Assembly (NCBI GenBank): GCA_035480055.1 | Contig: DATIIB010000006.1 | Location: forward strand, 73,209 to 137,208 | Source of the DNA: Candidatus Saccharimonadales bacterium | GTDB taxonomy: Bacteria; Patescibacteriota; Saccharimonadia; Saccharimonadales; DASZAF01 | DNA length: 64,000 nucleotides | Reading direction: 5' to 3' | Shown: positions 599 through 55,659 of the stretch, in pieces | Layout: every line of letters begins with the position of its first letter | Position numbering within the stretch: position 1 is the stretch's first letter | The notes under the pieces: model-generated | Seen by the model: only the letters and a program-made list of their open reading frames with translations | What the model was told of the DNA's origin: nothing | Database searches by the model: none | Translations under genes and position numbers: made by a program

Positions 599-973
599 TC
601 AACGCTCCTGCAACTTTTCCCAAAAACAAAGCTTATAGCCATCTGGGTCTTTCATAATGAACTCTCGATTACCCCAATGCCAATCTTTTGGCTCCGTGGC
701 TGGTTTGAATCCGTGTTCGAGTAATTGCTTGTGAGTCATGTCTACGTCTTCAACATTGATGTAAATGTATACACCGCGCCCCTTATCGCTTGCCATTGCA
801 TCACGCGCAAACTTCTCTTCGTCACGCATGGTGACTAGGTCAATGACAAATCCATTTAAAGAAATTAGGGAATGCTCGTCGTCAGATTGCAACACTTCAA
901 ACCCCAGTTTCTTATAGAATTTTTCAGAGAGCTTGTTTTCTTGTACCCAGAATAGTAAATTTGTAATCTTCAT
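599..973 (-). CDS. VOC (glyoxalase/bleomycin-resistance/dioxygenase) family protein
   Basis: 124-aa ORF. The pattern FYKKLGFEV...GVYIYINVEDVD...GNREFIMKDPDGYKLCFWE is typical of the VOC beta-alpha-beta-beta-beta fold. The gene looks more AT-rich than its neighbours. Confidence 0.7.
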   Translation of the reverse strand: MKITNLLFWVQENKLSEKFYKKLGFEVLQSDDEHSLISLNGFVIDLVTMRDEEKFARDAMASDKGRGVYIYINVEDVDMTHKQLLEHGFKPATEPKDWHWGNREFIMKDPDGYKLCFWEKLQER

Positions 974-1040
974 ACTTTAATTATGTAACACGGTGGAATA
1001 GCTTCAAAGTTGTAATTACAACAGGCAACGCTTCGCTACA

Positions 1041-1069
1041 TTGCTTCTTTAAGGTATTTATGGTATAAT
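1041..1069 (+). promoter_or_regulatory. promoter TTGCTT-17nt-TGGTATAAT (extended -10)
   Basis: TTGCTT lies at 1041-1046 and TGG+TATAAT at 1061-1069, upstream of the ORF starting at 1100. Confidence 0.5.
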
Positions 1070-1099
1070 AACCTAACGTAAAACTATAGATGTCTATAT

Positions 1100-1912
1100 A
1101 TGGCCCTCAGTAGTCCCACCCAAGAATTATTCGTAGCCCCAGAGAGTTACTCAATTTCTGATACGCAAATCGAGGAAATTGAAGGCAAGCTCGCAGAGGT
1201 CATTGCTGCTCGAACTCAAGCAAGCTTGGGCGCCCTAGTGCTCGCCAGCCCAGATCCTGAAGGTTATTTTGGAGCTCTGGGACGGCGCTTGGAGGTGCGA
1301 GATGGAAAATTCTATGAGATGCCAGAGGAGATGAAGGATGCCGAAGCCGAGAGTACCTTTATTTATATGTTTGATGCCGAGGCGTTGGCTCAAGATCGGC
1401 TTCGCGTTACCCATGTGACTCGTTTTTTGCAACCATCTCAAGACAACGCATGGAAACTACCCAGCGAGCTAGCCGAAGAACTTGATGCTGACCTTGAGGA
1501 AATAAGTGAATACCACAATATAGACAGGCTTGAAGATTGCCTGTATCTGACCACTGATCTGGCCGTGGCCGATATCATGCCCACGAGATTCAAACCGTAT
1601 GGCCTGTTAGCGTACCGGGCATTTATGGAATATGGCACCGATCACGGCTACGAACACGTCTTCGCCTATATGAATCCGAAAACAATCCGCGGACTAGGGC
1701 GGCTAGGAATCACTCCAGTGACACTGTGCGGTCGCAGTGATTATGATATCCCGCCTATTGGTGGCATTAGCTTTGAGCAGTACCAGCCGTATGTGCTCAG
1801 CTCTTCACAGGGCCACCAAGCTTTTACCGATCCGGAATTTGCCCGCCGCACACGTTGGGGCGAGGTTGTTATGAACACTTCTGTGGAGCTGCTTGAGGTA
1901 GAAGAGAGCTGA
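1100..1912 (+). CDS. hypothetical protein (possibly a GNAT-like acyltransferase fold)
   Basis: 270-aa ORF with coding-like composition. The segment LLAYRAFMEYGTDHGYEHVFAYMNPKTIRGLGRLGI loosely resembles acyl-amino-acid or autoinducer-synthase-like GNAT proteins. No firm motif was found. Confidence 0.55.
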   Translation: MALSSPTQELFVAPESYSISDTQIEEIEGKLAEVIAARTQASLGALVLASPDPEGYFGALGRRLEVRDGKFYEMPEEMKDAEAESTFIYMFDAEALAQDRLRVTHVTRFLQPSQDNAWKLPSELAEELDADLEEISEYHNIDRLEDCLYLTTDLAVADIMPTRFKPYGLLAYRAFMEYGTDHGYEHVFAYMNPKTIRGLGRLGITPVTLCGRSDYDIPPIGGISFEQYQPYVLSSSQGHQAFTDPEFARRTRWGEVVMNTSVELLEVEES

Positions 1913-1919
1913 CTTGTTG

Positions 1920-2564
1920 CTATTTGCTCAGGTGATACGCTACTACAGATAGCCATCCGAAAGCGGTAATACCGGCGGCGGCAAAGAATATGCCAGTTGA
2001 GCTGGTGCTTCCCAGCCCAAGCACTACCAATATCGGAGCGACGACACCGGTGAATAGGCTATAACGAGCCCAAGTCTTTTGCCCCAAACTGCTGAAGCGG
2101 CGAGCGAGCACGAAACAGGACGCGATTAGAGACAAAAAAATGATAAAGAAAGCAACACTGTGCACCATGGCATGCGGGCTAAAGCTTGCTGGTTTGCCGC
2201 TGGGGGCTCCAGCTGGAAAGCCAAAGCCGGCGTCAGGTTTGAAAAACCCAGCCAGGATGAGCCCTAGGCCGTAGGTGGTAATGAGAAGTGGGCCCCAGGT
2301 CTTGCCTCGACCATTTGCCAATACCTGGCGCAACCCAACTGCGCATAGTAGGGCTAACGCACCAGCACCAATAAAGTTAGTCACCTGAATCCAGCCCATA
2401 CTGCCTAAGCTCAGCGAGCTCACAGCCAATTCCCTGGGGTTAAAGCCCGATCGAGTGAACATCTCGATAATGGCCACAACCCAGAAGGCAGGCGCAAGCA
2501 CGGTTCCGCAAAGGAGGAGTAGTTTAGTATTTTTAGTGTTGATAGAGTTGGTTGTTGTAATCAT
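1920..2564 (-). CDS. integral membrane protein (DUF998-like, about 6 TM segments)
   Basis: 214-aa hydrophobic ORF with repeated TM-length segments. The family assignment is from memory only. Confidence 0.55.
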   Translation of the reverse strand: MITTTNSINTKNTKLLLLCGTVLAPAFWVVAIIEMFTRSGFNPRELAVSSLSLGSMGWIQVTNFIGAGALALLCAVGLRQVLANGRGKTWGPLLITTYGLGLILAGFFKPDAGFGFPAGAPSGKPASFSPHAMVHSVAFFIIFLSLIASCFVLARRFSSLGQKTWARYSLFTGVVAPILVVLGLGSTSSTGIFFAAAGITAFGWLSVVAYHLSK

Positions 2565-2568
2565 GGCA

Positions 2569-3168
2569 TTATTCTTCGCTTTCTTGTAGTGACTTGTGAG
2601 ATCGTTTCGGTCGGTAAATAAGCTCGACAGCGCCTGAGCCGTAAGGTGTGGCGCTTATTAATTCGAGCGGGGTGCGCTCGGGGAAGAGCGCCCGGCCCGA
2701 GCCTAGCGCGATTGGGGACATGTCGAGTCGGTATTCGTCGATGAGGTCGTACTCGATGAATGTGCGGGCGGTGTTAACGCCGCCGTAGACCACAATCTCG
2801 CCGCCAGGTTGTTTTTTTAGCTCCTGGATGTGGCGCACCATTTCTTCATCATCTGTGGCCAATAGTAGGGTGGCGTTGGTCCACGCGAGCGCTTCTTGGC
2901 GGGTCGAAATTACCAGCTTGGGCATGTCGTTCATGAGCTTGGCAAAGTCGCGGTCGGCCTGGCTAGACTTGGGGTTCTTCTCTGCGCCGGGCCAATATTC
3001 GGCGAGTTCTTGGTAGAGGTTGAAGCCCATCACTGCGGTAGCGTGCTCAGCCCATTCGTAGTGGCGGGTGGTCATGGCCGGATCGAAGGCCATCCAGTCG
3101 AGCGAACCGTCAGGGGCGCTGAGGAAACCATCGAGCGTGGTCATCATTTGCAAAATTACTTTTCGCAT
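2569..3168 (-). CDS. dihydrofolate reductase family protein (RibD C-terminal domain type)
   Basis: The N-terminus MRKVILQMMTTLDGFLSAPDGSLDWM and the segment GGEIVVYGGVNTARTFIEYDLIDEY are characteristic of this family. Confidence 0.75.
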   Translation of the reverse strand: MRKVILQMMTTLDGFLSAPDGSLDWMAFDPAMTTRHYEWAEHATAVMGFNLYQELAEYWPGAEKNPKSSQADRDFAKLMNDMPKLVISTRQEALAWTNATLLLATDDEEMVRHIQELKKQPGGEIVVYGGVNTARTFIEYDLIDEYRLDMSPIALGSGRALFPERTPLELISATPYGSGAVELIYRPKRSHKSLQESEE

Positions 3169-3195
3169 ATAGTGGTCTCCTGTCTATTTTGGATT

Positions 3196-3987
3196 TTATG
3201 CGCCAAAGAATTCTATGAGGACGGGCGCGATAACCTTGGGGTCGACTCCGTGGTCCTGGCCGGGCAAAGTGCGGTACTGCGCGCCGTCGATGGCGTCAGC
3301 CACGGCCTTGGTGGTTTCAAGAATCCAACCCCAACTCGCGCCACCGTCGATGGCAATGGTCGGGATTTTGATCTTGGCCAGCTCCGCCTTTGGGACCAGG
3401 AAGTCGCCAGCGGGCCCAGCGGTCAGGGCAGCGTCGTAAGGCAAACTGTGGGCAAATTTACGCATGCCTTCCCACATCGGTTGGCTCTTCATTCCGGCGA
3501 CTGCTGGGGCGGGGATGCCGACGAGCTTGGTCAAGAAGTACTCCATGGTGTCGCTCCATTTGTCTTTAGCCATGAGGTCCATCAAATGCTTGGGTGCACC
3601 GGCGGGAAGCTCGCGTTCACCCTTGCCAGTGCTAAAAGGTGGCTCAAATACCGCGATCTTGGTGATCCCGATGCCGCTCGAAGCCGCCAGTAACGTCAGG
3701 GCTGCACCCGACGATTGACCGTAGATGTAAGCTTCGCCACCAGCAGTTTCAATGACTGCGGCCAGGTCTTCGACTTCGCGCTGCGTGCTGTAAGGCTGAG
3801 TGTCGCCGCTGTCGCCGCGCCCACGCCGGTCGTAGTTATAGACTGTGAAATGGTCGGACAGCTCGGGGATGAACCCCTTATATTCCTGGCGATCCATAAA
3901 AGCCGCAGGGACGAGAATCAGCGCTGGTCCTTGGCCGGTTTTATCATACGCGATTGTGGTGCCGTCTTTAGATTGTACTGTGTGCAT
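3196..3987 (-). CDS. alpha/beta hydrolase
   Basis: The ORF track extends this frame to 4083. An internal ATG at 3987 is preceded by AAGGAG and avoids overlap with the divergent AraC gene. The nucleophile elbow is GQSSGA. Confidence 0.8.
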   Translation of the reverse strand: MHTVQSKDGTTIAYDKTGQGPALILVPAAFMDRQEYKGFIPELSDHFTVYNYDRRGRGDSGDTQPYSTQREVEDLAAVIETAGGEAYIYGQSSGAALTLLAASSGIGITKIAVFEPPFSTGKGERELPAGAPKHLMDLMAKDKWSDTMEYFLTKLVGIPAPAVAGMKSQPMWEGMRKFAHSLPYDAALTAGPAGDFLVPKAELAKIKIPTIAIDGGASWGWILETTKAVADAIDGAQYRTLPGQDHGVDPKVIAPVLIEFFGA

Positions 3988-4032
3988 AAAATTTCTCCTT
4001 GAGTTAGATGCTCTGTAGGTATAATAAGGCTC

Positions 4033-4863
4033 ATGATCGTCAAAAACTTGCAAAAAACCGCAGCCAATTTCCATGAATTGCATTATCCGCTTGATGGTGA
4101 CTTTGATATTAAAGATTTTGCCCCGTACTTTGACCTGAATTTCTACCAGCCATCACCGGATTTGGCGCCTTTCGTGGTGTATTACAGCGTGCTGCGCCCG
4201 AAGATTGCTTACGGCAAGACCCTCACAATGAGCATGGCTATGCAAACGCCTGGAGCTGGGCTACTCGTGAGCAAGCGGACAGCCAAGGTCTTTGGCGTGA
4301 CGACAGGCCAAATTATCAACCGCATCACTGGCGATACCATTAAGGTGCGGGCGCACTTTCGGCCGGCCGGGTTTTATGCATTTTGGGACAAGCCGATGTC
4401 GGAGCTGGTGGATCAAGCGCTGCCATTGGCCGAGGTCTTTCCGGCGGCGGATAGTGCATTCGTCGCCGACTTGCTGGCCTGCCCACGAGACCTTGAGGTG
4501 GTGTCGCGCCTGGAATCGTTACTGCGTCAAAAGCAGCCGGTGTACGACAAGAATATTGGAGTGGTAGACGATATCATCCAGAAGATTGAAGATGACGAAC
4601 TGTATACGGTGGCAGAGGTGGCCAAGGCTTGCGCTAAGAGCGAGCGCACTTTGCAGCAGCTGTTTTATACCTATGTTGGCGTTGGGATCAAACGGATCAT
4701 CATGCGCAATCGAATTATGAAGGCGATGCAACTGGCTGATGCTGCGGATAAAATTAATTGGACCACGATTGCCGCCGATTTAGGCTACAGTACGCAGTCG
4801 CACTTTGTGCATGATTTTAAAAAGTTAGCTGGGTATCCACCTTCCAAGTTTCGTACGCAATAA
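4033..4863 (+). CDS. AraC family transcriptional regulator
   Basis: The C-terminal double HTH reads TVAEVAKACAKSERTLQQLF...DLGYSTQSHFVHDFKKLAGYPPSKFR. TATAAT at 4020-4025 ends 7 nt before the ATG. Confidence 0.85.
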   Translation: MIVKNLQKTAANFHELHYPLDGDFDIKDFAPYFDLNFYQPSPDLAPFVVYYSVLRPKIAYGKTLTMSMAMQTPGAGLLVSKRTAKVFGVTTGQIINRITGDTIKVRAHFRPAGFYAFWDKPMSELVDQALPLAEVFPAADSAFVADLLACPRDLEVVSRLESLLRQKQPVYDKNIGVVDDIIQKIEDDELYTVAEVAKACAKSERTLQQLFYTYVGVGIKRIIMRNRIMKAMQLADAADKINWTTIAADLGYSTQSHFVHDFKKLAGYPPSKFRTQ

Positions 4864-4923
4864 CGGACGCTCAGGACTAAGTGATTATGCTATTATTTGT
4901 ATTGGTAAAATAAGGAGCAAAGT

Positions 4924-5973
4924 ATGAAATACCGATCATTTTTTGCAAAAGTATCGCACTATTTTGTTTTGGCGCTTGTGCTCGGCATGGTTTTTCTGCC
5001 AGCTCAGACGCATGCCCTTTCTAGCTCGCCCTGTCAGCAGTTGCAGCTGCCGGTTGCACTTGTCCCCGGCGGGCCTGCAGACCAGACCATCTCGGCACAA
5101 CTTTGTACGCCAAATTCTTGGTCAGGTGAACACCAAATAGACATTCTTAGCCCCGGCGCAACCTATAATCGCACTTACTGGGATTGGCCGCAGCAGCCAG
5201 AGCTGTACTCATATGCCCAAAAGACGCTGCAATCTGGACGAGCCGTATTACTCTACGATCGAGTGGGATCGGGCCAAAGTAGCCATCCATTAAGCGCTGC
5301 CATTACCTATGAGGGCGAGGCATATATCTTGCATCAGCTGGTCCAATGGTCTCGTCATCAGGGATATGCAGCGGTCAATACAGTTGGCCATTCGTATGGA
5401 TCAATGTTGGGCGTTGCCGAGGACGCTTCGTATAAGGACGTTGATCGAGTGGTGCTCACTGGACTTCTGCATACGATAGTCACACCGGGCTTTGTATCCG
5501 CGATAGGTTCGGCTTATCCTGCGGCGCTCGATCCACTCTTTTTAGGGAAGACTCTTGATGCAGGCTATATCACCACAGAACCTGGGACTAGAGGAGGCGA
5601 CTTCTATAACACGGCCACAGCTGACCCGGCGGTTATCGCCTATGACGAGACACACAAAGACATGATAACCTCTACAGGGTTAGGCGAGGCCGTCACTGCG
5701 ACAGCCGTGCCGTCTTCATTGAACATCTCGCGGCAAGTTACTGCACCTGTGCTTCTTATTGCAGGGCAGGAGGATGGTATATTTTGTCAGCCGCAACTAC
5801 TCGCATTGGACTGCAGCAATAGTGAAGCGGTGCGCACCTTTGAAGCCGCATATTTTCCAAATGCAGCGAATCTCACCGCGGTCACCGTTCCCGGCACAGG
5901 CCATGATCTCACGTTACATCCATCGGCCACCGACTCATTCAAGAGTATTGACGCCTGGATGAAGGCGCATTAG
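4924..5973 (+). CDS. secreted alpha/beta hydrolase
   Basis: The protein has an N-terminal signal-like hydrophobic segment and the nucleophile elbow GHSYGS. AAGGAG lies upstream of the ATG. Confidence 0.7.
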   Translation: MKYRSFFAKVSHYFVLALVLGMVFLPAQTHALSSSPCQQLQLPVALVPGGPADQTISAQLCTPNSWSGEHQIDILSPGATYNRTYWDWPQQPELYSYAQKTLQSGRAVLLYDRVGSGQSSHPLSAAITYEGEAYILHQLVQWSRHQGYAAVNTVGHSYGSMLGVAEDASYKDVDRVVLTGLLHTIVTPGFVSAIGSAYPAALDPLFLGKTLDAGYITTEPGTRGGDFYNTATADPAVIAYDETHKDMITSTGLGEAVTATAVPSSLNISRQVTAPVLLIAGQEDGIFCQPQLLALDCSNSEAVRTFEAAYFPNAANLTAVTVPGTGHDLTLHPSATDSFKSIDAWMKAH

Positions 5974-6039
5974 CTAGCCTACTTATCCGTATGTACTTAT
6001 CGCTTGTCTAGGGATATTATTTACCCATGCAGAGGGCAT

Positions 6040-7287
6040 ATGGATAAGGTACTAATAGACGTTGGGTCATCCACGGTGAAAGTATATAAACTCACGGATG
6101 GCAAACTTCTTCCTATAGAAACGAAGAGTATCCATTTTAAAGAAGATTTTGATCCAGCGCAGGGCATTACTGAATCAAATAAAGACATCCTAATCGAGTA
6201 TATCAATCAACTCAAAAAAAGATCCCCTGGGGGGATTAAAATTTTCGCCACGGCCATCTTCCGCAAGTTTGATGAGGCCGCGCGACAGGATTTTGGAGAC
6301 GAGTTCTTTAGACGAACTGATCTCTTTTTTTACATTGTCCCGCACGACCTCGAGGGTTATTACCTGGAGATGGCGTTGGCGGGCAAGAACACTCTTATCG
6401 ATCCACTGTTGCTCATTAATATCGGCGGCGGTTCAACTGAGCTAATCGTCACTCGTGGGACGGAAGTGATTGACCGGCACAATCTGGATATTGGGGTGAT
6501 GACCGTGCTCAAAGATTTTCCTTATATCAATAATGCCACCTCGGAGCATGTGCTGGCAGACGTTGTCCAGGGGATACAAGCTAAGCTACCGCCGACGACT
6601 CTTAAGACGCCCATCGCGATGTACAACGGGGGTGAGCTCACCTATATGAATTTGGCAGGGTATAAGCTCGAACTCAATACCGTCCTTAAAGACGAAGATC
6701 ATCCCTCAATGATTCGCGTGCAGGATTTTAGCAAGCGTAACGAGCAAGTTTTTCGCGAGGTGACATTGAAGTCCCTGGAAGCGCTTATGCCCAATGATCC
6801 GTTGTGGATGCACGGGGCACGAGCCTGCTCAGCGATAGCTCAGGCGATATGCGAGCATTTTGGGGTCGGCACGATTATTCCTTCGGATTCGAACATGGTG
6901 CATGGGGTTGTACGGCAGGAGTTTCGTACGGTTGTATTGAGCGGAAGTTTCAGAAAGCACCTCGAGTATATTCTTAAGGTAAAGAAAGAACTGGCCCAAA
7001 AGAATATCCAGATTTTGAGCCCGCGCTTTGAAGAGCCAAAGAACCCGGGTGAAGAATTTGTGGTGTTTGATGGCGAGGAAGGACTGTCGCCCCTTGACCT
7101 GGAACGATACCACTTGGATATGATCGACCAATGCGATGCCTTGGTTATCTGTTCACCCGGAGGCTATGTCGGTGCCTCTGCCTTGATTGAATTTGGATAT
7201 GCACAAGCTAAAGGCAAACGGATTATTTTTACTGAGAAACCAGAGGAGTTTATGCTGGGCACTTTACCTGCAGAAGTAGGTCTCTAA
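6040..7287 (+). CDS. fusion protein: Ppx/GppA-like ASKHA domain + nucleoside 2-deoxyribosyltransferase-like domain
   Basis: The N-terminal part (about 6040-6918) has the ASKHA phosphate motifs LIDVGSSTVKVY and INIGGGSTELIV. The C-terminal part (about 6925-7248) reads VVLSGSF...DALVICSPGGYVGASALIEFGYAQAKGKRIIF, an NDT-like pattern with a Glu in IEFGYA. The track starts the ORF at TTG 6004, but ATG 6040 is more likely. Confidence 0.7.
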   Translation: MDKVLIDVGSSTVKVYKLTDGKLLPIETKSIHFKEDFDPAQGITESNKDILIEYINQLKKRSPGGIKIFATAIFRKFDEAARQDFGDEFFRRTDLFFYIVPHDLEGYYLEMALAGKNTLIDPLLLINIGGGSTELIVTRGTEVIDRHNLDIGVMTVLKDFPYINNATSEHVLADVVQGIQAKLPPTTLKTPIAMYNGGELTYMNLAGYKLELNTVLKDEDHPSMIRVQDFSKRNEQVFREVTLKSLEALMPNDPLWMHGARACSAIAQAICEHFGVGTIIPSDSNMVHGVVRQEFRTVVLSGSFRKHLEYILKVKKELAQKNIQILSPRFEEPKNPGEEFVVFDGEEGLSPLDLERYHLDMIDQCDALVICSPGGYVGASALIEFGYAQAKGKRIIFTEKPEEFMLGTLPAEVGL

Positions 7288-7307
7288 CATCTAAAAGAGG
7301 ATATCCC

Positions 7308-7982
7308 ATGAATAGAGTAGTGGGATTTGCCGGCAAAGCAGAAACCGGCAAATCAACAGCAGCAGAAATGCTGCATACTATTGTGCGCCCCCAAAACGGG
7401 CAGCACTTGGAGTTTTCTAGTCCAATCCTTTCCTTGGCTCAGCAGTGGATGAGCATCTCACTCCCGGGCGCAGATTCTCGCACAGTAATTGAGAATCTTC
7501 GGGATCTTATTACTGAGGCTCATGCTGAACTGGTTGAGGCGCTTGTGAAGTCGGGGTTGGAATCGGATGGTTTGCAAGAGTATTTGGAGAATCGCACATC
7601 GGCACCAATTACCCCCGAGACAAAAGGAGCGCATCGGCAGCTGCTCGAGTGGTTGGGTAAAGGCGCGGTCGATCATATTGGCCCTACTTTTTGGGCTGAC
7701 AAACTGGAGATGAAAGCCCGCTCATCTCTGGAGGAAGGCGCCGACCTTCTGACAATCGGCGGAGTACGTTCAGGCTACGACGCACAGGTGGTGAGGAATC
7801 TTGGAGGGAGCATCATTCGTCTAACTCGGGGCAGAAAAACCCCAATACTTCCTTCGGAAGCGGGCTTAGAATCCTGGAGTGCTGATTTCGACATACCGAA
7901 CGATAGCACGCTTGAAGATTTACGGTATGCGATTTTTCAAGCTTGGGCTTCAACCATTGATCAGGCTAGGGAGGGTTCTTAA
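7308..7982 (+). CDS. P-loop kinase, deoxynucleoside-monophosphate-kinase-like
   Basis: The Walker A motif is GFAGKAETGKST. The later segments TIGGVRSGYDAQVVRNLGGSIIRLTRG and SEAGLESWSADFDIPNDSTLEDL resemble phage/bacterial dNMP kinases. Confidence 0.6.
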   Translation: MNRVVGFAGKAETGKSTAAEMLHTIVRPQNGQHLEFSSPILSLAQQWMSISLPGADSRTVIENLRDLITEAHAELVEALVKSGLESDGLQEYLENRTSAPITPETKGAHRQLLEWLGKGAVDHIGPTFWADKLEMKARSSLEEGADLLTIGGVRSGYDAQVVRNLGGSIIRLTRGRKTPILPSEAGLESWSADFDIPNDSTLEDLRYAIFQAWASTIDQAREGS

Positions 7983-8446
7983 GCCAGCTCTTCCTCAATC
8001 TTCTTCGTGTGCGTCTTTACGTTTTCGGTAAAGCGCGTCAAAAAATCTGCGATCACTTTAAGCTCCTGGTCTGAGTAGCTGGCAATCAGCTCATTGTGAG
8101 CTTGCTGCACGCCAGCAACGAGTGGCCGTGAGGTCTTGGCTGATTCCGGATTGATCTCGATGAAGAGCCCGCGCCGGTCTTTCGGATTTGGTTTACGGGT
8201 AATAAACTTGGCTTTTTCTAAGCGATCCAGCATTGCGGTGGTTGAACCGGTAGTTAGGCCGGTAAAACGCGCGAGTTCGGTAGGCGTAGAAGTGCCGCGT
8301 ATGGTGAGGAGACTCAGGCATTCTGAATCGGTGACGTTCAGGCCAAGCCGCCTGCCAATGGCATTCCGAAAGAGCACCGAGCTAATGCCTTGCTCGCGTG
8401 CGGCAATGAAAACCTGTTTTTGTAATTCTTCTTTTGTCTGAGTCAT
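7979..8446 (-). CDS. MarR family transcriptional regulator
   Basis: The winged-HTH region reads LTIRGTSTPTELARFTGLTTGSTTAMLDRLEKAKFITRKPNPKDRR. Confidence 0.85.
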   Translation of the reverse strand: MTQTKEELQKQVFIAAREQGISSVLFRNAIGRRLGLNVTDSECLSLLTIRGTSTPTELARFTGLTTGSTTAMLDRLEKAKFITRKPNPKDRRGLFIEINPESAKTSRPLVAGVQQAHNELIASYSDQELKVIADFLTRFTENVKTHTKKIEEELA

Positions 8447-8534
8447 AGTTTGCTAATTGTTGACAGTAGCTTTAATATCAAGTAAATTGATTATACGACT
8501 ATATTATAAAAATTGCAACAGGAAAGGACCCACT

Positions 8535-8912
8535 ATGCAAGTTATAGATAAACTGATGATGTTCAGCCTGGCGGTTACCGACATGCCAACTGCCAAGACA
8601 TTTTACGAGGACAAACTGGGCCTCAAAGTGACCACCGATTATCGCCAAGATGACGACAACTGGTGGGTCTCGTTGGCTCTTCCCGAAGGCGACATGACCA
8701 TCACTCTCTCGACTCACCATGGCAACATGAAGCCAGGCAGTATGGTGATGTACTTTGCAACTTCAGACATTACCGCAGCTCACGACGCACTCACTGGCAA
8801 AGAGGTAAAGGTGGGCAAAATTGGCGATGATCTCCACGGTCCTGGCTCTGGCACCAAGTGGTTCAACTTTAAGGACCCCGATGGTAATTTGATTCACATC
8901 GAACAAGCCTAA
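8535..8912 (+). CDS. VOC/glyoxalase family protein
   Basis: The internal ATG at 8535 is preceded by AGGAAAGGA. The segments AKTFYEDKLGLKV and FNFKDPDGNLIHIEQ fit the VOC family. The gene is divergent from the MarR gene. Confidence 0.75.
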   Translation: MQVIDKLMMFSLAVTDMPTAKTFYEDKLGLKVTTDYRQDDDNWWVSLALPEGDMTITLSTHHGNMKPGSMVMYFATSDITAAHDALTGKEVKVGKIGDDLHGPGSGTKWFNFKDPDGNLIHIEQA

Positions 8913-8968
8913 GGCATCTGTCCTTTATGAGAGTGGTATCATAAGAATACCGAAACTGGAGGACACTT

Positions 8969-9655
8969 ATGATACTTACCCTTATTGAAAAAGAGCACTT
9001 ATTAGACAACGTATGGGCCTTTCGGTTTGAGCCGAGCGAGCCGCTGGAATGGATGGCTGGGCAATATGTCAGCGTTGAGTTGCCGCATAAAGATCCTGAC
9101 GGCGAAGGCACGCGGCGTTGGTTTACCATTTCGTCTGCGCCTTACGAAAAAATCCTGCAGATTACCACCCGCGTGACACAAAGTACGTTTAAACAGGCAT
9201 TGTCGCAGCTGAATGTTGGCGACACTGCGCTGCAACTGCTGGACAAACCGCATGGTGATTTTGTGTGGGAAGATTCAGACAAACCGCTGGTCTTTGTGGC
9301 CGGCGGTATTGGTATTACCCCTTTTCATAGCATGCTAAAGCAGCGAGCGCATGAGAATCTGCCGCTGCACGTAACGCTTATATACGCCAGCCGCACCCCA
9401 GAAGTCCCATTCAAGGATGAGCTGCAGGCCTGGATAGAGAAAGATCCGCAGTTTAAGGTGCAGTACGTGGTAGGCGAGCCGCTCACTGCTGCACGCCTAA
9501 TGGCATTAGTACCAACTCTTAACCAGTCGCTTGTATATCTTACCGGCCCGCAACCATTGGTGGTGCCACTCGCCGACGACCTTGAGGCGCAAGGTTTACC
9601 CGAAGCCCAGCTCAAGCAAGATTTCTTCCCGGCCTACACCAAGCATAATTATTAA
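8969..9655 (+). CDS. FNR-like FAD/NAD(P)-binding oxidoreductase
   Basis: RRWFTISS is an RxYS-type FAD motif and GGIGITPF is an NAD(P)-binding motif. Confidence 0.75.
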   Translation: MILTLIEKEHLLDNVWAFRFEPSEPLEWMAGQYVSVELPHKDPDGEGTRRWFTISSAPYEKILQITTRVTQSTFKQALSQLNVGDTALQLLDKPHGDFVWEDSDKPLVFVAGGIGITPFHSMLKQRAHENLPLHVTLIYASRTPEVPFKDELQAWIEKDPQFKVQYVVGEPLTAARLMALVPTLNQSLVYLTGPQPLVVPLADDLEAQGLPEAQLKQDFFPAYTKHNY

Positions 9656-9758
9656 AATTTGACGATCGCTTTCCACTCAGGGCATACTGGAATTACAGCG
9701 TGCGGCAGATTTTTCCTGTACTGTTTAGGCAAATATAAGCTAAGCAAGGAGGTTAATT

Positions 9759-10661
9759 ATGACACATTCTTTAATCTCAACCGAGGAGCTCTCTTATCGC
9801 AAAAGAGTTTGGCTGCTTGGAACAAATATGGCCTACGTGGATGTCGGCGAAGGTGACCCAATCGTCTTTTTGCACGGCAACCCTACGCCATCGTATCTTT
9901 GGCGGAACATTATTCCCTATGTGCTGCCATTCGGGCGATGTTTGGCGCCTGATTATGTCGGAATGGGCAACTCAGGCGCAGCGCCAGATGGATCGTATCG
10001 GTTTGTAGATCACCAGCGCTACTTGGATGCCTGGTTTGAAGCCCTTGGTTTAGAGAAGAATGTTATTTTGGTGGTCCATGATTGGGGTTCGGCGTTGGGA
10101 TTCTCTTGGGCGCAGCGTCATCCTGAACGGGTGAAGGCGATTGTGTACATGGAATCGATTGTTCGCCCATTTTTTTCATGGGACGAATGGCCAGAAGCGA
10201 CTCGTGAATTCTTTAAACGCCAGCGCACGCCAGAGGGTGAGGATCTGATCCTTCAGAAAAATCTCTTTATCGAGTACCTTTTGCCGTTGCGCAATATTTC
10301 TGCCGATGCCATGGAAGTGTACCGGCGGTACTTTAGGAATCCTGGGCCTTCGCGAATGCCAATGCTGACGTGGACCCGAGAACTCCCGATCGAGGGTGAG
10401 CCAAAGGACGTTACACGGATTGTTGAGTCGTATTCTCAGTGGTTGGCGCAGAGCAGTTCTCTGCCCAAGCTCTTTATCGACGCCGATCCAGCCGGCTTTT
10501 TAATTGGCGCCCAGCGTGACTTTTGCCGGAAGTGGCCCAACCAGCAAACCGTGGTGGTCAAAGGATCACACTTTCTGCAAGAAGACGCACCCGATGAAGT
10601 TGGCGAGGCTACAGCCCGGTTTATAGCCAAAGTGCTCGCCGGGCAAATATCGTCAACCTAA
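9759..10661 (+). CDS. haloalkane dehalogenase (HLD-II type alpha/beta hydrolase)
   Basis: Three motifs support the call: FLHGNPTPSYLWRNIIP, the nucleophile context VVHDWGSALGF, and the C-terminal GSHFLQEDAPDE. AAGGAGG lies upstream of the ATG. Confidence 0.85.
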   Translation: MTHSLISTEELSYRKRVWLLGTNMAYVDVGEGDPIVFLHGNPTPSYLWRNIIPYVLPFGRCLAPDYVGMGNSGAAPDGSYRFVDHQRYLDAWFEALGLEKNVILVVHDWGSALGFSWAQRHPERVKAIVYMESIVRPFFSWDEWPEATREFFKRQRTPEGEDLILQKNLFIEYLLPLRNISADAMEVYRRYFRNPGPSRMPMLTWTRELPIEGEPKDVTRIVESYSQWLAQSSSLPKLFIDADPAGFLIGAQRDFCRKWPNQQTVVVKGSHFLQEDAPDEVGEATARFIAKVLAGQISST

Positions 10662-11929: not shown

Positions 11930-12872
11930 AGCACCTCTTCGTCTCGCCGTCATTGATGTGGGTACCTTAAAGTGCAAGTTTGAGGTACGCGAATTTGATT
12001 CTCAAGGCAAAAGTACGGTACTGCATCGTGATAAGAAGTTAACCGTACTTGGTCGCGACTTACCCAAAACGAATAATCGTATTATCGAAAGCTCCATTGC
12101 CGCTACTATCGCCGCGCTGCAGGAATTTAAAGAGGTCATGACTAAGCTTGGGGTGACCGATTGTACCTGCATTACCACCGAAGCGATTCGAAAAGCAGTC
12201 AATGCCGAGGAAGTTTTGGAGCGTATTTTTAAAGAGACAGCGTTAGAACTAAAGATCATGACGCATGACGACGAAGCGCGCACTTTCTTTTCGCATCTCA
12301 CTAAAAAGTTTCCAGGCAAGAAGATCGCCGTGGCTGATATTGGTGGCGGCAGTGTGCAGTTAGTAATCGGGCACGACCAAACAATTGCGGATGCCTTTCT
12401 TTTCAAAAGCGGCACGTACTTTATGCAGGAGTTTTCGGCAACGCATCATCCCACGCACAGTGAACTTGCTGCTGCCAAAAAATATGTGCAAAAAGAATTT
12501 GTCCCGCTTGCGCGCAAGAAACACCAAGTAGATGAGCTGATTTATGGAAGCACAAATATCATTGATGTTATGCAAGCAGTTGGCGCCGCATTGCAGCCTT
12601 CGCATTACGCCGAGCCGCATCTGTATCGTGTGCATCGTGATGAGTTAGAAAAGCTGTATCAAAGAATCACCGTGCTCCCTTATGAAGCGCGCATGTCGAT
12701 GTATCCTGACGAACCGTATTACATGTGGTCAATGGATAACGCTTTGATTAACCTCTTTGCTTTTATGGATATTCTTGGTGTCGATACGGTTATCCCGACT
12801 AATGAAAATATTTCGAGCGGGCTTTTTAGCCAGCTGCTCGAGCTGCATGAAAGAAGCAGCTTATGTCTGTAA
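11922..12872 (+). CDS. Ppx/GppA family phosphatase (two-domain short form)
   Basis: ASKHA motifs AVIDVGTLKCKF and ADIGGGSVQLVIG are present. The 316-aa protein has no C-terminal HD-like extension. Confidence 0.8.
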   Translation: MPKAPLRLAVIDVGTLKCKFEVREFDSQGKSTVLHRDKKLTVLGRDLPKTNNRIIESSIAATIAALQEFKEVMTKLGVTDCTCITTEAIRKAVNAEEVLERIFKETALELKIMTHDDEARTFFSHLTKKFPGKKIAVADIGGGSVQLVIGHDQTIADAFLFKSGTYFMQEFSATHHPTHSELAAAKKYVQKEFVPLARKKHQVDELIYGSTNIIDVMQAVGAALQPSHYAEPHLYRVHRDELEKLYQRITVLPYEARMSMYPDEPYYMWSMDNALINLFAFMDILGVDTVIPTNENISSGLFSQLLELHERSSLCL

Positions 12873-13498
12873 TTAAAGATTTTTTTGCCCGTTACCCCAC
12901 CAAGACTTTTGCAAAGGGCGAGGTGCTTATTCAGGCAGAGAGCGAACCTCCGGGCATTTTTTATATACGTGAAGGACGAATAAGCCAATACGACATCGCT
13001 TCTAGCGGCAGGACGATTGTGGTAAATGTCTTTACGCCAGCTGCATTTTTTCCAATGAGTTGGGCGATCAACAGGACGCCAAACCATTACTTCTTTGAAG
13101 CCATGACCGAAGTGATAACTTACCAAGCGCCAGCTGAAGATGTGGTGGCATTCTTGCGGGATAATCAGGACGTTCTGTTTGATTTGCTCTCACGAGTGTA
13201 TCGAGGAACCGACGGTTTGCTCCGCCGAATAGCCCACCTTATGGGCGGGGATTCTCGGACACGTCTACAATTCGAATTGCTCAATGCGGCATATCGCTTT
13301 GGAGAGACACGGCCTGATGGCATGGTCTTTGTGCCGCTTAAAGAGAGCGATCTGGCACAATCGTCCGGGCTCGTCCGCGAAACAGTCAATCGTACTATCC
13401 ATCGTCTGAAAGTTGCCGGTCTGATTACGGTGACGCACCAGGGGTTTATTCTTCGTGATCTGGCTGAACTCGAGCGAACCTTGGGCGACGAACTATAG
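12863..13498 (+). CDS. Crp/Fnr family transcriptional regulator
   Basis: The N-terminal cNMP-binding beta-barrel pattern is FAKGEVLIQAESEPPGIFYIREGRI. The C-terminal HTH is QSSGLVRETVNRTIHRLKVAGLI. The gene overlaps the upstream gene by 10 nt. Confidence 0.85.
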   Translation: MSVIKDFFARYPTKTFAKGEVLIQAESEPPGIFYIREGRISQYDIASSGRTIVVNVFTPAAFFPMSWAINRTPNHYFFEAMTEVITYQAPAEDVVAFLRDNQDVLFDLLSRVYRGTDGLLRRIAHLMGGDSRTRLQFELLNAAYRFGETRPDGMVFVPLKESDLAQSSGLVRETVNRTIHRLKVAGLITVTHQGFILRDLAELERTLGDEL

Positions 13499-54443: not shown

Positions 54444-54995
54444 TTACTTTGTGGCGTACTCGAGGTGGGGCGCGCCCAGCTCACTCTTGGCTTGTTCAAG
54501 TAGGCGGCGAAAGGATGCTTTGACTCGCGAGCTAATGAGCGTGAGTTCGTGCGCACTTAGGGAATAATCCTGCTGGCTAAGGTTCTTGAGAATAAAATTG
54601 AGCTCTGCAGCTTCCAGCTTTGGCAAATTGGCAATGGTCATGTCTTTTATGTGCGCCACGATCACTTCGCGAGTAAAGGCATCCACCTCTGGGTGAAAGA
54701 TCGGCTTTTTAACCAGAACGATTGGTTTAGATTTAGCCATCGCATGCAAAATCTGTAGCGCCAGTGCGGCAGTAATCTCGCCATCCTCGTTCCATACAAT
54801 ATGAAATGAACTGCGGCTGATCGAATCGTAGAAGTGCAGTTCGCTTTCGTAAGCCGCCCAAGGGCTGGAAGATGTTGATATGTCGATTGGATCGGTGACG
54901 GCAATGTCGAGCTCGTGTAGTTGGGAAGTACACGCGATTAAAGAACTTTTTCTGGTGTGCGGCTGGCTACCAATTTGAGTGAGTGGACGCTGCAT
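54444..54995 (-). CDS. hypothetical protein, NDT-like fold with Gln in place of the catalytic Glu
   Basis: The segment FYDSISRSSFHIVWNEDGEITAALALQILHAMAKSKPIVLVKKP aligns by eye with the NDT-like cores of 6040..7287 and 55132..55659. A helical C-terminal extension follows. Confidence 0.5.
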   Translation of the reverse strand: MQRPLTQIGSQPHTRKSSLIACTSQLHELDIAVTDPIDISTSSSPWAAYESELHFYDSISRSSFHIVWNEDGEITAALALQILHAMAKSKPIVLVKKPIFHPEVDAFTREVIVAHIKDMTIANLPKLEAAELNFILKNLSQQDYSLSAHELTLISSRVKASFRRLLEQAKSELGAPHLEYATK

Positions 54996-55053: not shown

Positions 55054-55131
55054 TTTTTATAACTTTCAATGCTTATTTTTGGCTACCTCTGGGCGACAAG
55101 AGAGGGATATGGTAAAATAAAAGTACTGAAT

Positions 55132-55659
55132 ATGCGAGTTCACTTTATAACCTCACGACCTACTGCAGAAAAGAATACTCCTTTTCTAGAACTGGTGTTA
55201 CGTACAATCGAAGCCTCTGGTCATGTGTTTGCCAACACCACTGCGGGCACGGGCACGTCGCGCAAAGCACCAACCGATATTGAGGCTATCGCCAAGTCAG
55301 ACGCCGTGATCGCCGAAGTGAGCCAAGAGAGTTTTGAAGTTGGCTATTTGTGCGCAGTGGCAGTGCAACAAAAGAAGCCGCTGCTGCTATTGAATAACCA
55401 GCCAGCCGCAGGTGATACTTTTATGGAAGGGCTTACCGAAGCGTGGGTGGCTCGTTTCTCCTACGCAAACGATGACGAAGCGGTCGGGGCGATACAGCAA
55501 TTCTTAAACGACAATGATATCGCCACCAAAGATATGCGCTTTAACTTTTTCATTGACCGCCAAATTTATAACTACCTGCGCAGTGCTGCCTTCAAAACCG
55601 GCAAGACCAAAGCCGAAATTCTTCGTGAACTTGTCCAACGCGAGATTGAAAAACTATAA
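55132..55659 (+). CDS. NDT-like domain protein fused to a C-terminal ribbon-helix-helix domain
   Basis: The start is placed at MRVHFITS (ATG 55132), after TGGTAAAAT at 55110-55118. The core is IAKSDAVIAEVSQESFEVGYLCAVAVQQKKPLLLL. The C-terminus is RFNFFIDRQIYNYLRSAAFKTGKTKAEILRELVQREIEKL. Confidence 0.6.
   Translation: MRVHFITSRPTAEKNTPFLELVLRTIEASGHVFANTTAGTGTSRKAPTDIEAIAKSDAVIAEVSQESFEVGYLCAVAVQQKKPLLLLNNQPAAGDTFMEGLTEAWVARFSYANDDEAVGAIQQFLNDNDIATKDMRFNFFIDRQIYNYLRSAAFKTGKTKAEILRELVQREIEKL

Follow-up and report, generated by a model that had tools for sequence, protein, structure and literature searches.

A gene in a 64,000-nucleotide stretch of Candidatus Saccharimonadales DNA (contig DATIIB010000006.1; we call the whole stretch the window) encodes a protein in which a Ppx/GppA-type ASKHA module is fused to a C-terminal domain of the NDT superfamily. 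Both folds, and the logic of coupling them, are already known; for the fusion itself we have found no characterisation. Our favoured proposal, to which we give somewhat less than an even chance, is that the protein is a two-step bifunctional nucleotide-processing enzyme, which would convert a nucleoside polyphosphate to a 5'-monophosphate and then cleave off or exchange the base. A first-pass annotation of the window had proposed that this open reading frame (ORF) joins a two-lobe ASKHA domain to an NDT-like one. That assignment is upheld, for the first half by a passing Pfam score and by structure prediction with AlphaFold2 (AF2) followed by Foldseek, and for the second by structural matches to NDT, BcmB and DNPH1. 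The motifs it had quoted, DVGSSTVKVY (residues 7-16), NIGGGSTELIV (127-137) and SPGGYVGASALIEFGYAQAKGKRIIF (372-397), are all present in the fusion.

The N-terminal half passes the Pfam Ppx-GppA model (PF02541) with 32.8 bits against a gathering score of 27, and a profile built from 47 homologues matched solved PPX/GppA chains in the PDB at E = 1e-13 over residues 5-290. When the AF2 model of the whole protein (predicted local distance difference test, pLDDT, 90.3; predicted TM-score, pTM, 0.84) was compared with known structures, the best 37 matches were all PPX/GppA proteins, headed by 1t6d (E = 7e-19, target TM ~0.73-0.74), and the next family was represented by Legionella NTPDase1 (E = 6e-12). 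As modelled, this half is predicted to have two RNase-H-like lobes that form the ASKHA cleft. We mapped its residues by alignment to A. aeolicus PPX and with the help of a study of D. radiodurans PPX (DrPPX; PMC11234463). Lobe I carries D7, S10-S11-T12, K14, K34, T71, R75 and E105, and lobe II carries N127-IGGGSTE134, G197-G198-E199 and a W256-MHGAR261 motif. D7, R75, E105 and E134, equivalent to DrPPX D7, R86, E114 and E143, are invariant in the fusion family, so that four of the five members of the DrPPX catalytic set D7/R86/E114/D136/E143 are kept; the equivalent of D136 is an invariant Asn127. The G-G-G-S-T loop is also kept. S10-S11-T12, K14 and K34 correspond to T10/N11/S12, H14 and K35 of DrPPX, which contact the phosphate chain, and T71 to T82, another such contact; in DrPPX, D7 is a ligand of Mg2+, and the D136A mutant has only ~10% of its activity left, that is, ~90% is lost (PMC11234463). 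Since Asn127 replaces the Asp of the phosphate-2 motif and the other phosphate-handling residues are kept, the module appears well able to bind a phosphate chain, with a changed set of water-activating residues.

The window also contains a second, stand-alone Ppx/GppA gene (Table 1), situated 4.6 kb from the fusion and far more canonical; the fused copy is therefore a diverged paralogue. The phosphate-2 motif of the stand-alone product reads D-I-G-G-G-S-V-Q-L, with Gln where PPX has a catalytic Glu, and its gene overlaps by 10 nucleotides that of a Crp-type regulator (12863..13498, +) composed of a cyclic-nucleotide-binding domain and a helix-turn-helix (HTH).

On the C-terminal domain (C-domain) the Pfam NDT models score below threshold (PF05014, 18.9-22.3 bits against 28.8; PF15891, 18-22 against 30), and PF05014 is matched at E <= 1e-3 by 32 of 54 C-domain relatives. 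A phmmer search with the domain found BcmB, a cytidine monophosphate (CMP) N-glycosidase (4jen), at E = 5e-4, and the CMP N-glycosidases BcmB and MilB are its nearest solved relatives by sequence. We modelled residues 294-415 separately (pLDDT 88), and Foldseek aligned this model with 2a0k, 4jen, 6qai, 2klh, 4jem and 4kxm (E = 5e-5 to 2e-3, TM 0.55-0.66). The structural matches comprise T. brucei NDT, BcmB/MilB, Rcl/DNPH1 and phage or viral NDT-like proteins, among them a Gordonia phage Ghobes protein that is probably DmtZ. The model thus predicts a flavodoxin-like NDT fold.

Its conserved features are G302-S303-F304-R305-K306, P328, E346, H358, D366, G375-Y376-V377-G378, S380, the putative nucleophile E384 and a C-terminal tail, L406..P410-x-E412. 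HMMER aligned E384 with the Glu of the I-E-I-G-W-A motif in BcmB and MilB; the covalent nucleophile of the superfamily is E104 in DNPH1 and E103 in DmtZ (PMC10603095; PMC12884076). By motif mapping, V299-L-S-G302-S303-F304-R305 lines up with Y24-F-C26-G-S-I29-R30 of DNPH1. The Arg of this motif, R23 in MilB, binds the 5'-phosphate, and its hydrophobic residue stacks on the base (PMC10603095). The phosphate pocket also includes S97 in MilB, and S98 and S128' in DNPH1 (PMC10603095). In the fusion R305 matches the conserved Arg, while S380 lies, in the alignment only, two residues off the S97/S98 position, which is occupied by G378.

We searched 1.84 billion cluster representatives with HMMER, obtained 681 relatives of the C-domain at E <= 1e-3, and used the best 150 of the 681 for conservation and architecture. 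Of 148 aligned relatives, 146 have the nucleophile Glu and 147 have P328, which comes right after strand 2; G302 and S303 are found in ~140 of 142 (~98%) and R305 in 95 of 141. Further signature positions of the clade are [FY]304, K/R306, [DE]346, D366, G-Y-x-G and S/T380. Two residues of the NDT triad depart from this picture of retention. At the position of the triad Tyr (Y24 in DNPH1, Y6 in DmtZ) the fusion has V299 and its relatives V, T, A, S or C, Tyr being outside the six commonest residues there. At the position of the triad Asp/Asn (D80 in DNPH1, N77 in DmtZ) the fusion has His358, as mapped by HMMER alignments to MilB and BcmB and by motif spacing; this His never varies in the fusion family, and in the wider clade 95 of 150 members have it. 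MilB-type ribo-specific enzymes are said (Sikowitz et al. 2013) to be without the triad Tyr as well. By its sequence the C-domain clade stands apart within the NDT superfamily: it has His for Asp, lacks the Tyr, and is conserved in the manner of an active site. The label "NDT-like" given to the domain at first thus holds for the fold and the nucleophile Glu and fails for canonical NDT (nucleoside transferase) membership, which we rejected on the absent triad Tyr and Asp and the sub-threshold Pfam scores. We also rejected a LOG/PpnN-type nucleoside monophosphate (NMP) nucleosidase, as PF03641 gave no match at E <= 1 and the likeness is conceptual only.

The fusion is widespread. Homologues of it form 597 protein clusters at E <= 1e-3, and nearly all of the 120 clusters listed are full length (~416 residues, 56-74% identity), with very high conservation in both halves and at the domain junction. 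In a collection with one genome per GTDB species we found 133 fusion loci, which belong overwhelmingly to Saccharibacteria, with some in WWE3, Woesebacteria and other Patescibacteria; part of them come from host-associated metagenomes, e.g. Candidatus Nanoperiomorbus. Several fusion-bearing records of metagenome-assembled genomes (MAGs) are labelled Gammaproteobacteria, Babeliales or Pacearchaeota, labels that probably reflect binning or labelling errors. A frameshift, or two genes read as one, was considered and rejected given the 597 homologous clusters of the same full-length architecture and a single confident model (pTM 0.84) across both halves, and the first-pass view of one continuous gene stands. 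So does its statement that the fusion is uncharacterised: the literature searched (fusion, NDT plus MazG, nucleotide salvage in the candidate phyla radiation, CPR) yielded no characterisation of the fusion or of its MazG- or NUDIX-fused relatives, the only related mention being the annotation of SEML1_0813 in a supplementary table.

Among the best 150 relatives of the C-domain, 77 are stand-alone proteins (~120-170 residues) and 73 are multidomain. The Pfam partners in the latter are MazG (20), MazG-like (4), PRA-PH (1), Ppx-GppA (11), NUDIX (3), ITPase (NTPase_I-T, 1), HAD (1) and ADK (1), and in a few cases HTH or receiver domains. In their MazG parts these proteins are similar to DCTPP1 and phage MazZ. 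The recurrent partners are nucleoside triphosphate (NTP) phosphohydrolases that yield nucleoside 5'-monophosphates, and by a Rosetta-stone argument we infer that the C-domain clade acts on (deoxy)nucleoside monophosphates, (d)NMPs. The DNPH1/MilB-like G-S-x-R motif and the NTP-pyrophosphatase partners likewise point to nucleoside 5'-monophosphates, rather than nucleosides, as the probable substrates. The names under which the relatives are deposited ("hypothetical", "exopolyphosphatase/pppGpp-phosphohydrolase", "NTP pyrophosphatase (non-canonical NTP hydrolase)") are uninformative. A precedent for such coupling exists in phages, where DmtZ, an NDT-family dAMP N-glycosidase that also transfers deoxyribose-5-phosphate (dR5P) to a base, is encoded adjacent to, or fused with, DutZ, the dATP/dGTP hydrolase of Z-genome phages (PMC12884076).

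We then surveyed gene neighbourhoods, calling and clustering ORFs around the fusion in 84 loci. In 44 host-associated genomes there is one housekeeping synteny (RecJ ... fusion, S21, YqeY, ADK, MetAP), which we counted as a single observation; the ~30 contexts that remain are diverse and repeatedly nucleotide-related. A 196-residue NDT-like protein with a ribbon-helix-helix (RHH) tail is encoded divergently upstream of the fusion in seven loci, one of them in a WWE3 genome. Ham1/ITPase lies near it in seven loci and ASCH in six, and Pur_DNA_glyco is directly downstream in seven loci from five genomes. Guanylate kinase (GMK, locus L057), an ADK-like protein (L004) and a YfbR-like HD protein (L002) were also seen. 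To judge from the Ham1, Pur_DNA_glyco, ASCH and YfbR neighbours, the fusion may help to dispose of non-canonical or damaged scavenged nucleotides, and the kinase neighbours suggest that usable (d)NMPs are recharged. Other one-off neighbours are DUF488-N3a, PHP-domain and LigT/2H phosphoesterase genes (L007, 6946..7314, -; L055, 5067..5729, -, and 7279..7905, +), plausibly tied to nucleotide or RNA ends.

In the window the fusion is followed by a T4-type dNMP-kinase homologue. The first-pass annotation had described the next gene, 20 nucleotides downstream, as a Walker A protein with dNMP-kinase-like blocks, and the searches agree: its product passes Pfam DNMK (PF21448) with 30.6 bits against 27.1, matches phrog_139 ("dNMP kinase") at E = 2e-19 over residues 1-215, and has the Walker A sequence G-K-A-E-T-G-K-S-T. 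Its start is preceded by AAAAGAGGA, a ribosome-binding-like sequence, and the MarR-family gene that follows the kinase (7979..8446) is convergent, so that fusion and kinase form a two-gene unit. Orthologues of the kinase lie directly downstream of the fusion in seven other loci (L001, L005, L008, L009, L010, L012 and L018), with gaps of -3 to +19 nucleotides; in five of these the genes overlap or abut (-3 to 0). All seven are close relatives (60-73% identity), and one more weak match was found in L020. The kinase is thus a conserved neighbour of the fusion in the closest clade only (seven loci plus one weak match of the 84 loci, or of ~30 non-redundant contexts). The earlier idea of a cassette for coupled nucleotide salvage or remodelling is accordingly sustained in part, by the nucleotide-enzyme neighbours and the C-domain partners, and gives way on the kinase, whose linkage is clade-specific.

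We now consider how such a protein could work. Substrates, reaction direction and the coupling of the two steps are predictions in what follows; they build on domain identities, conserved residues, family distribution, neighbours and fusion partners, all of them shown here. The ASKHA half would bind the phosphate chain of a nucleoside polyphosphate, be it a (d)NTP, a (d)NDP or an alarmone-like nucleotide, and would trim its terminal phosphates to leave the 5'-monophosphate, as NTPDase and Ppx/GppA enzymes do. The C-domain would take over the (d)NMP, its G-S-x-R motif and S380 gripping the 5'-phosphate. Attack of Glu384 on C1' would link (deoxy)ribose-5-phosphate covalently to the enzyme, the departing base receiving its proton from His358 in place of the usual Asp, and water would finally release (deoxy)ribose-5-phosphate and the free base. 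The net effect would be to destroy non-canonical or surplus scavenged nucleotides while recovering sugar-phosphate and bases, and in the clade of the window the co-transcribed dNMP kinase would recharge the usable dNMPs. We favour this two-step reading because both folds are confidently assigned, the phosphate-handling residues are kept and the nucleophile Glu is conserved; because the partners of the C-domain handle NMPs, DmtZ-DutZ offers a precedent and nucleotide enzymes recur as neighbours; and because the fusion and kinase genes overlap or abut in five loci.

Several observations weigh against it. The invariant Asn127 in place of the phosphate-2 Asp of PPX may mean that the chemistry differs from simple hydrolysis. 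Ppx/GppA enzymes are known for acting on polyphosphate (polyP) and pppGpp, not for NTP-to-NMP conversion. Catalysis by the C-domain is not assured, since of the NDT triad it retains only the Glu (Val299 stands for Tyr and His358 for Asp) and its Pfam NDT scores are below threshold. The housekeeping neighbourhood of the 44 host-associated genomes (S21, YqeY, ADK, MAP) gives little information. Finally, relatives consisting of lobe I and the C-domain are hard to reconcile with a classical two-lobe phosphohydrolase. This short architecture of ~255-260 residues, in which ASKHA lobe I only (profile positions ~2-117) is joined straight to the C-domain and the second lobe is absent, was seen in P0163, P0168 (a cluster of 210 members), P0177, P0185, P0213, P0227 and P0267. 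A half-ASKHA module that works by homodimerisation is one possibility; the architecture is explained neither by the two-step proposal nor by any of the alternatives below. The S. epibionticum protein SEML1_0813 appears to be of this short type, and in the PMC10633639 supplements it is annotated as hypothetical and scored as non-essential by transposon sequencing (Tn-seq). Some relatives have tandem C-domains in two or three copies, which in one case follow a full ASKHA module; P0196 (535 residues) is among the relatives with such architectures.

An alternative that we consider unlikely, though with an appreciable chance, is base exchange. The C-domain would then be a phospho(deoxy)ribosyltransferase (dNMP + base' -> dN'MP + base) and the ASKHA half a phosphotransferase, for example polyP- or NTP-dependent, which together with the adjacent NMP/dNMP kinases would rebalance the scavenged pool. 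This would agree with the recurrence of kinases (DNMK, GMK, ADK-like) and of a stand-alone NDT-like gene beside the fusion, with the transferase activity of DmtZ, a natural NDT-family enzyme (PMC12884076), and with the invariant Asn127, which in place of the water-contacting Asp of PPX could disfavour hydrolysis. A polyP:ADP phosphotransferase activity has also been reported for one Ppx (PMC4631893). The near-universal P328 might correspond to the water-excluding Pro described for transferases (PMC12884076). However, the dominant partners of the C-domain are hydrolytic NTP pyrophosphatases, a better fit to degradation, the sequence gives no sign of kinase rather than phosphatase activity, and BcmB and MilB, the nearest solved relatives by sequence, are hydrolases. 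In its fullest form, which strikes us as rather unlikely, the fusion, the kinase and the NDT-like partners would make up a nucleotide-level base-exchange machine, with Glu384 as covalent catalyst and His358 as acid/base, coupled to the phosphate-chain chemistry of the ASKHA module. If base exchange were true, auxotrophic Patescibacteria could convert abundant scavenged nucleotides into missing ones without de novo synthesis, by a new salvage route and with a new catalytic variant of the NDT superfamily (Val/His/Glu).

Alternatively, and in our view improbably, the C-domain could bind nucleotides as a non-catalytic sensor, a role that many SLOG, TIR and NDT-like domains have, and gate a phosphatase of Ppx/GppA type whose substrate would be polyP or a (p)ppGpp-like alarmone. 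In favour of this, the domain has an incomplete NDT triad, HTH or receiver domains are fused to some members of the family, and one paralogue in the window is degenerate, having Gln in place of the nucleophile; given the more canonical Ppx/GppA gene of the window, the fused copy could be a paralogue with a specialised role and under regulation. PpnN, an NMP nucleosidase under (p)ppGpp control, offers a conceptual parallel. Against this, the Glu kept in 146 of 148 relatives, together with G-S, [DE]346, D366 and G-Y-x-G-x-S, points to an active site and not just to a binding site, and roughly one family member in two is a stand-alone protein of 120-170 residues, with no effector domain to regulate. 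An anti-phage effector that depletes nucleotides upon infection is very improbable: three loci (L002, L003 and L019) do have the fusion a few genes downstream of OLD-family ATPase/TOPRIM and HTH genes, neighbourhoods in environmental lineages are variable, and defence systems often contain NDT-like, TIR and SLOG folds, but PADLOC-DB 2.0 has no match for the fusion, the kinase or either of the other NDT-like ORFs of the window (E <= 0.1), and 55-74% full-length identity over 133 loci with a fixed housekeeping context in 44 host-associated genomes is a pattern expected of core metabolism rather than of defence islands. These three loci are one Patescibacteria chromosome recorded as "Gammaproteobacteria". 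Upstream of the fusion (positions 640..5917) it has OLD-family ATPase/TOPRIM, three genes of unknown type, SET-domain, YfbR-like HD and HTH genes, which may be a defence or mobile region that abuts the fusion-Pur_DNA_glyco pair.

The features of the window are collected in Table 1. The fusion ORF starts at the ATG of position 6040, where all homologues begin, and its stop codon is 7285-7287. An in-frame TTG at 6004 was rejected as start on account of the homologue starts and of an identical database protein of 415 residues (P0001), namely "hypothetical protein VLF60_02260" of a Candidatus Saccharimonadales MAG, with 100% identity and coverage. That protein is encoded on a 491-kb contig, and we accordingly assign the window to a soil-type Saccharibacterium (Patescibacteria/CPR).

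Table 1. Genes and domains of the window discussed in the text.
Feature	Position	Strand	Description or basis
Fusion gene	6040..7287	+	415 residues plus stop; Ppx/GppA-type ASKHA module and NDT-superfamily domain
ASKHA / Ppx-GppA-like half, residues 1-294	6040..6921	+	PF02541, PDB profile matches, Foldseek, residue mapping
NDT-superfamily C-domain, residues 297-415	6928..7284	+	Structure models, HMMER/phmmer alignments
T4-type dNMP-kinase homologue, 224 residues	7308..7982	+	Pfam DNMK, phrog_139, Walker A
Second, stand-alone short Ppx/GppA gene, 316 residues	11922..12872	+	PF02541, 125.8 bits
Marginal C-domain-family relative	54444..54995	-	hhalign, family HMM; Gln at the nucleophile position
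Stand-alone NDT-like protein with C-terminal CopG/RHH-like tail	55069..55659	+	Orthologues pass PF05014

Upstream of the fusion are genes for a secreted-type alpha/beta hydrolase and an AraC-type regulator. The surrounding region, 3196..10661, is rich in accessory-type genes, with three alpha/beta hydrolases (3196..4083, 4924..5973 and 9759..10661), AraC-type and MarR-type regulators, a possible glyoxalase-like protein and an FNR-like reductase, an unusual ballast for a reduced CPR genome. We rejected the idea that the cassette derives from a prophage or mobile element: no tRNA genes were found across the 64-kb window, the GC content of the cassette (0.47-0.50) resembles that of the surroundings, and the fusion has no PHROG match, the kinase being the only part of the cassette to match a phage family. 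A scan for promoters and terminators around the cassette gave nothing exceeding shuffled expectation.

Two further NDT-like proteins had been proposed at 54.4-55.7 kb, where the two last genes of Table 1 form a divergent pair; one is now solid and the other marginal. The RHH-tailed product scores 14.4 bits with PF05014, under threshold, and its tail has only a weak phrog_7325 match. It shares 37-43% identity with cluster-12 proteins of L001, L005, L006, L018 and L057 and 28-30% with those of L035 and L015, and the cluster-12 representative passes PF05014 at 30.7 bits. It is the window orthologue of the gene found divergently upstream of the fusion in seven other genomes, and here it lies 48 kb from the fusion. 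The product of the opposite strand has no Pfam match; hhalign relates it to the C-domain family with a probability of 66%, and the hidden Markov model (HMM) of the family finds it at E = 1.4e-8 among the window ORFs. With Gln at the nucleophile position it is probably degenerate or inactive, or it may be regulatory.

The fusion is among the better-conserved uncharacterised enzymes of Saccharibacteria and bears on the nucleotide economy of Patescibacteria. In published accounts these bacteria are described as limited in biosynthetic capacity and dependent on hosts. The fusion may help bacteria unable to make nucleotides to clean, recycle or rebalance scavenged ones; to our knowledge, Patescibacteria lack de novo nucleotide synthesis. 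The repeated fusion of the C-domain clade to MazG, NUDIX, ITPase and Ppx/GppA suggests a widespread, unstudied module leading from NTP to NMP to base plus sugar-phosphate. If true, this two-step module would be to bacteria what the DCTPP1/DNPH1 sanitising axis is to humans and DutZ-DmtZ to phages. NDT-family enzymes also serve as biocatalysts for nucleoside and nucleotide analogues.

Compared with known systems, the fusion has the two-lobe ASKHA fold in common with the short Ppx/GppA phosphatases (A. aeolicus PPX/GPPA, 1t6c/2j4r; N-terminal domains of the D. radiodurans, E. coli and H. pylori enzymes), but it scores very low with their Pfam model (32.8 bits, when the stand-alone paralogue of the window reaches 125.8), and it carries the NDT-like domain instead of a C-terminal HD-like domain III/IV. 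The neighbouring kinase meets the Pfam threshold and shares phrog_139 and Walker A with the T4 gp1-type dNMP kinases, from which it differs in belonging to a narrow, fast-evolving cellular family; a word-seeded homologue search for it retrieved only five clusters. The C-domain has its fold, the nucleophile Glu in an I-E-x-G-[YW]-A context and a G-S-[hydrophobic]-R motif in common with DNPH1/Rcl, a 2'-deoxynucleoside 5'-phosphate N-hydrolase, and with the CMP and hydroxymethyl-CMP N-glycosidases MilB/BcmB, and differs from them in Val299 for Tyr, His358 for Asp, an identity of ~16-22% and the fusion to ASKHA. The MazG-, NUDIX- and ITPase-fused relatives have the same C-domain signature (G-S-[FY]-R-K ... 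P ... H ... G-Y-x-G-x-S ... E) next to a partner whose fold is unlike ASKHA. Like the fusion as we read it, DmtZ-DutZ couples an NTP phosphohydrolase to an NDT-superfamily enzyme for the resulting dNMP; it differs in that its partner is dUTPase-like rather than ASKHA, in the DmtZ triad (Tyr6, Asn77, Glu103), in being of phage rather than cellular Patescibacteria origin, and in its link to Z-base biosynthesis, which the fusion does not have.

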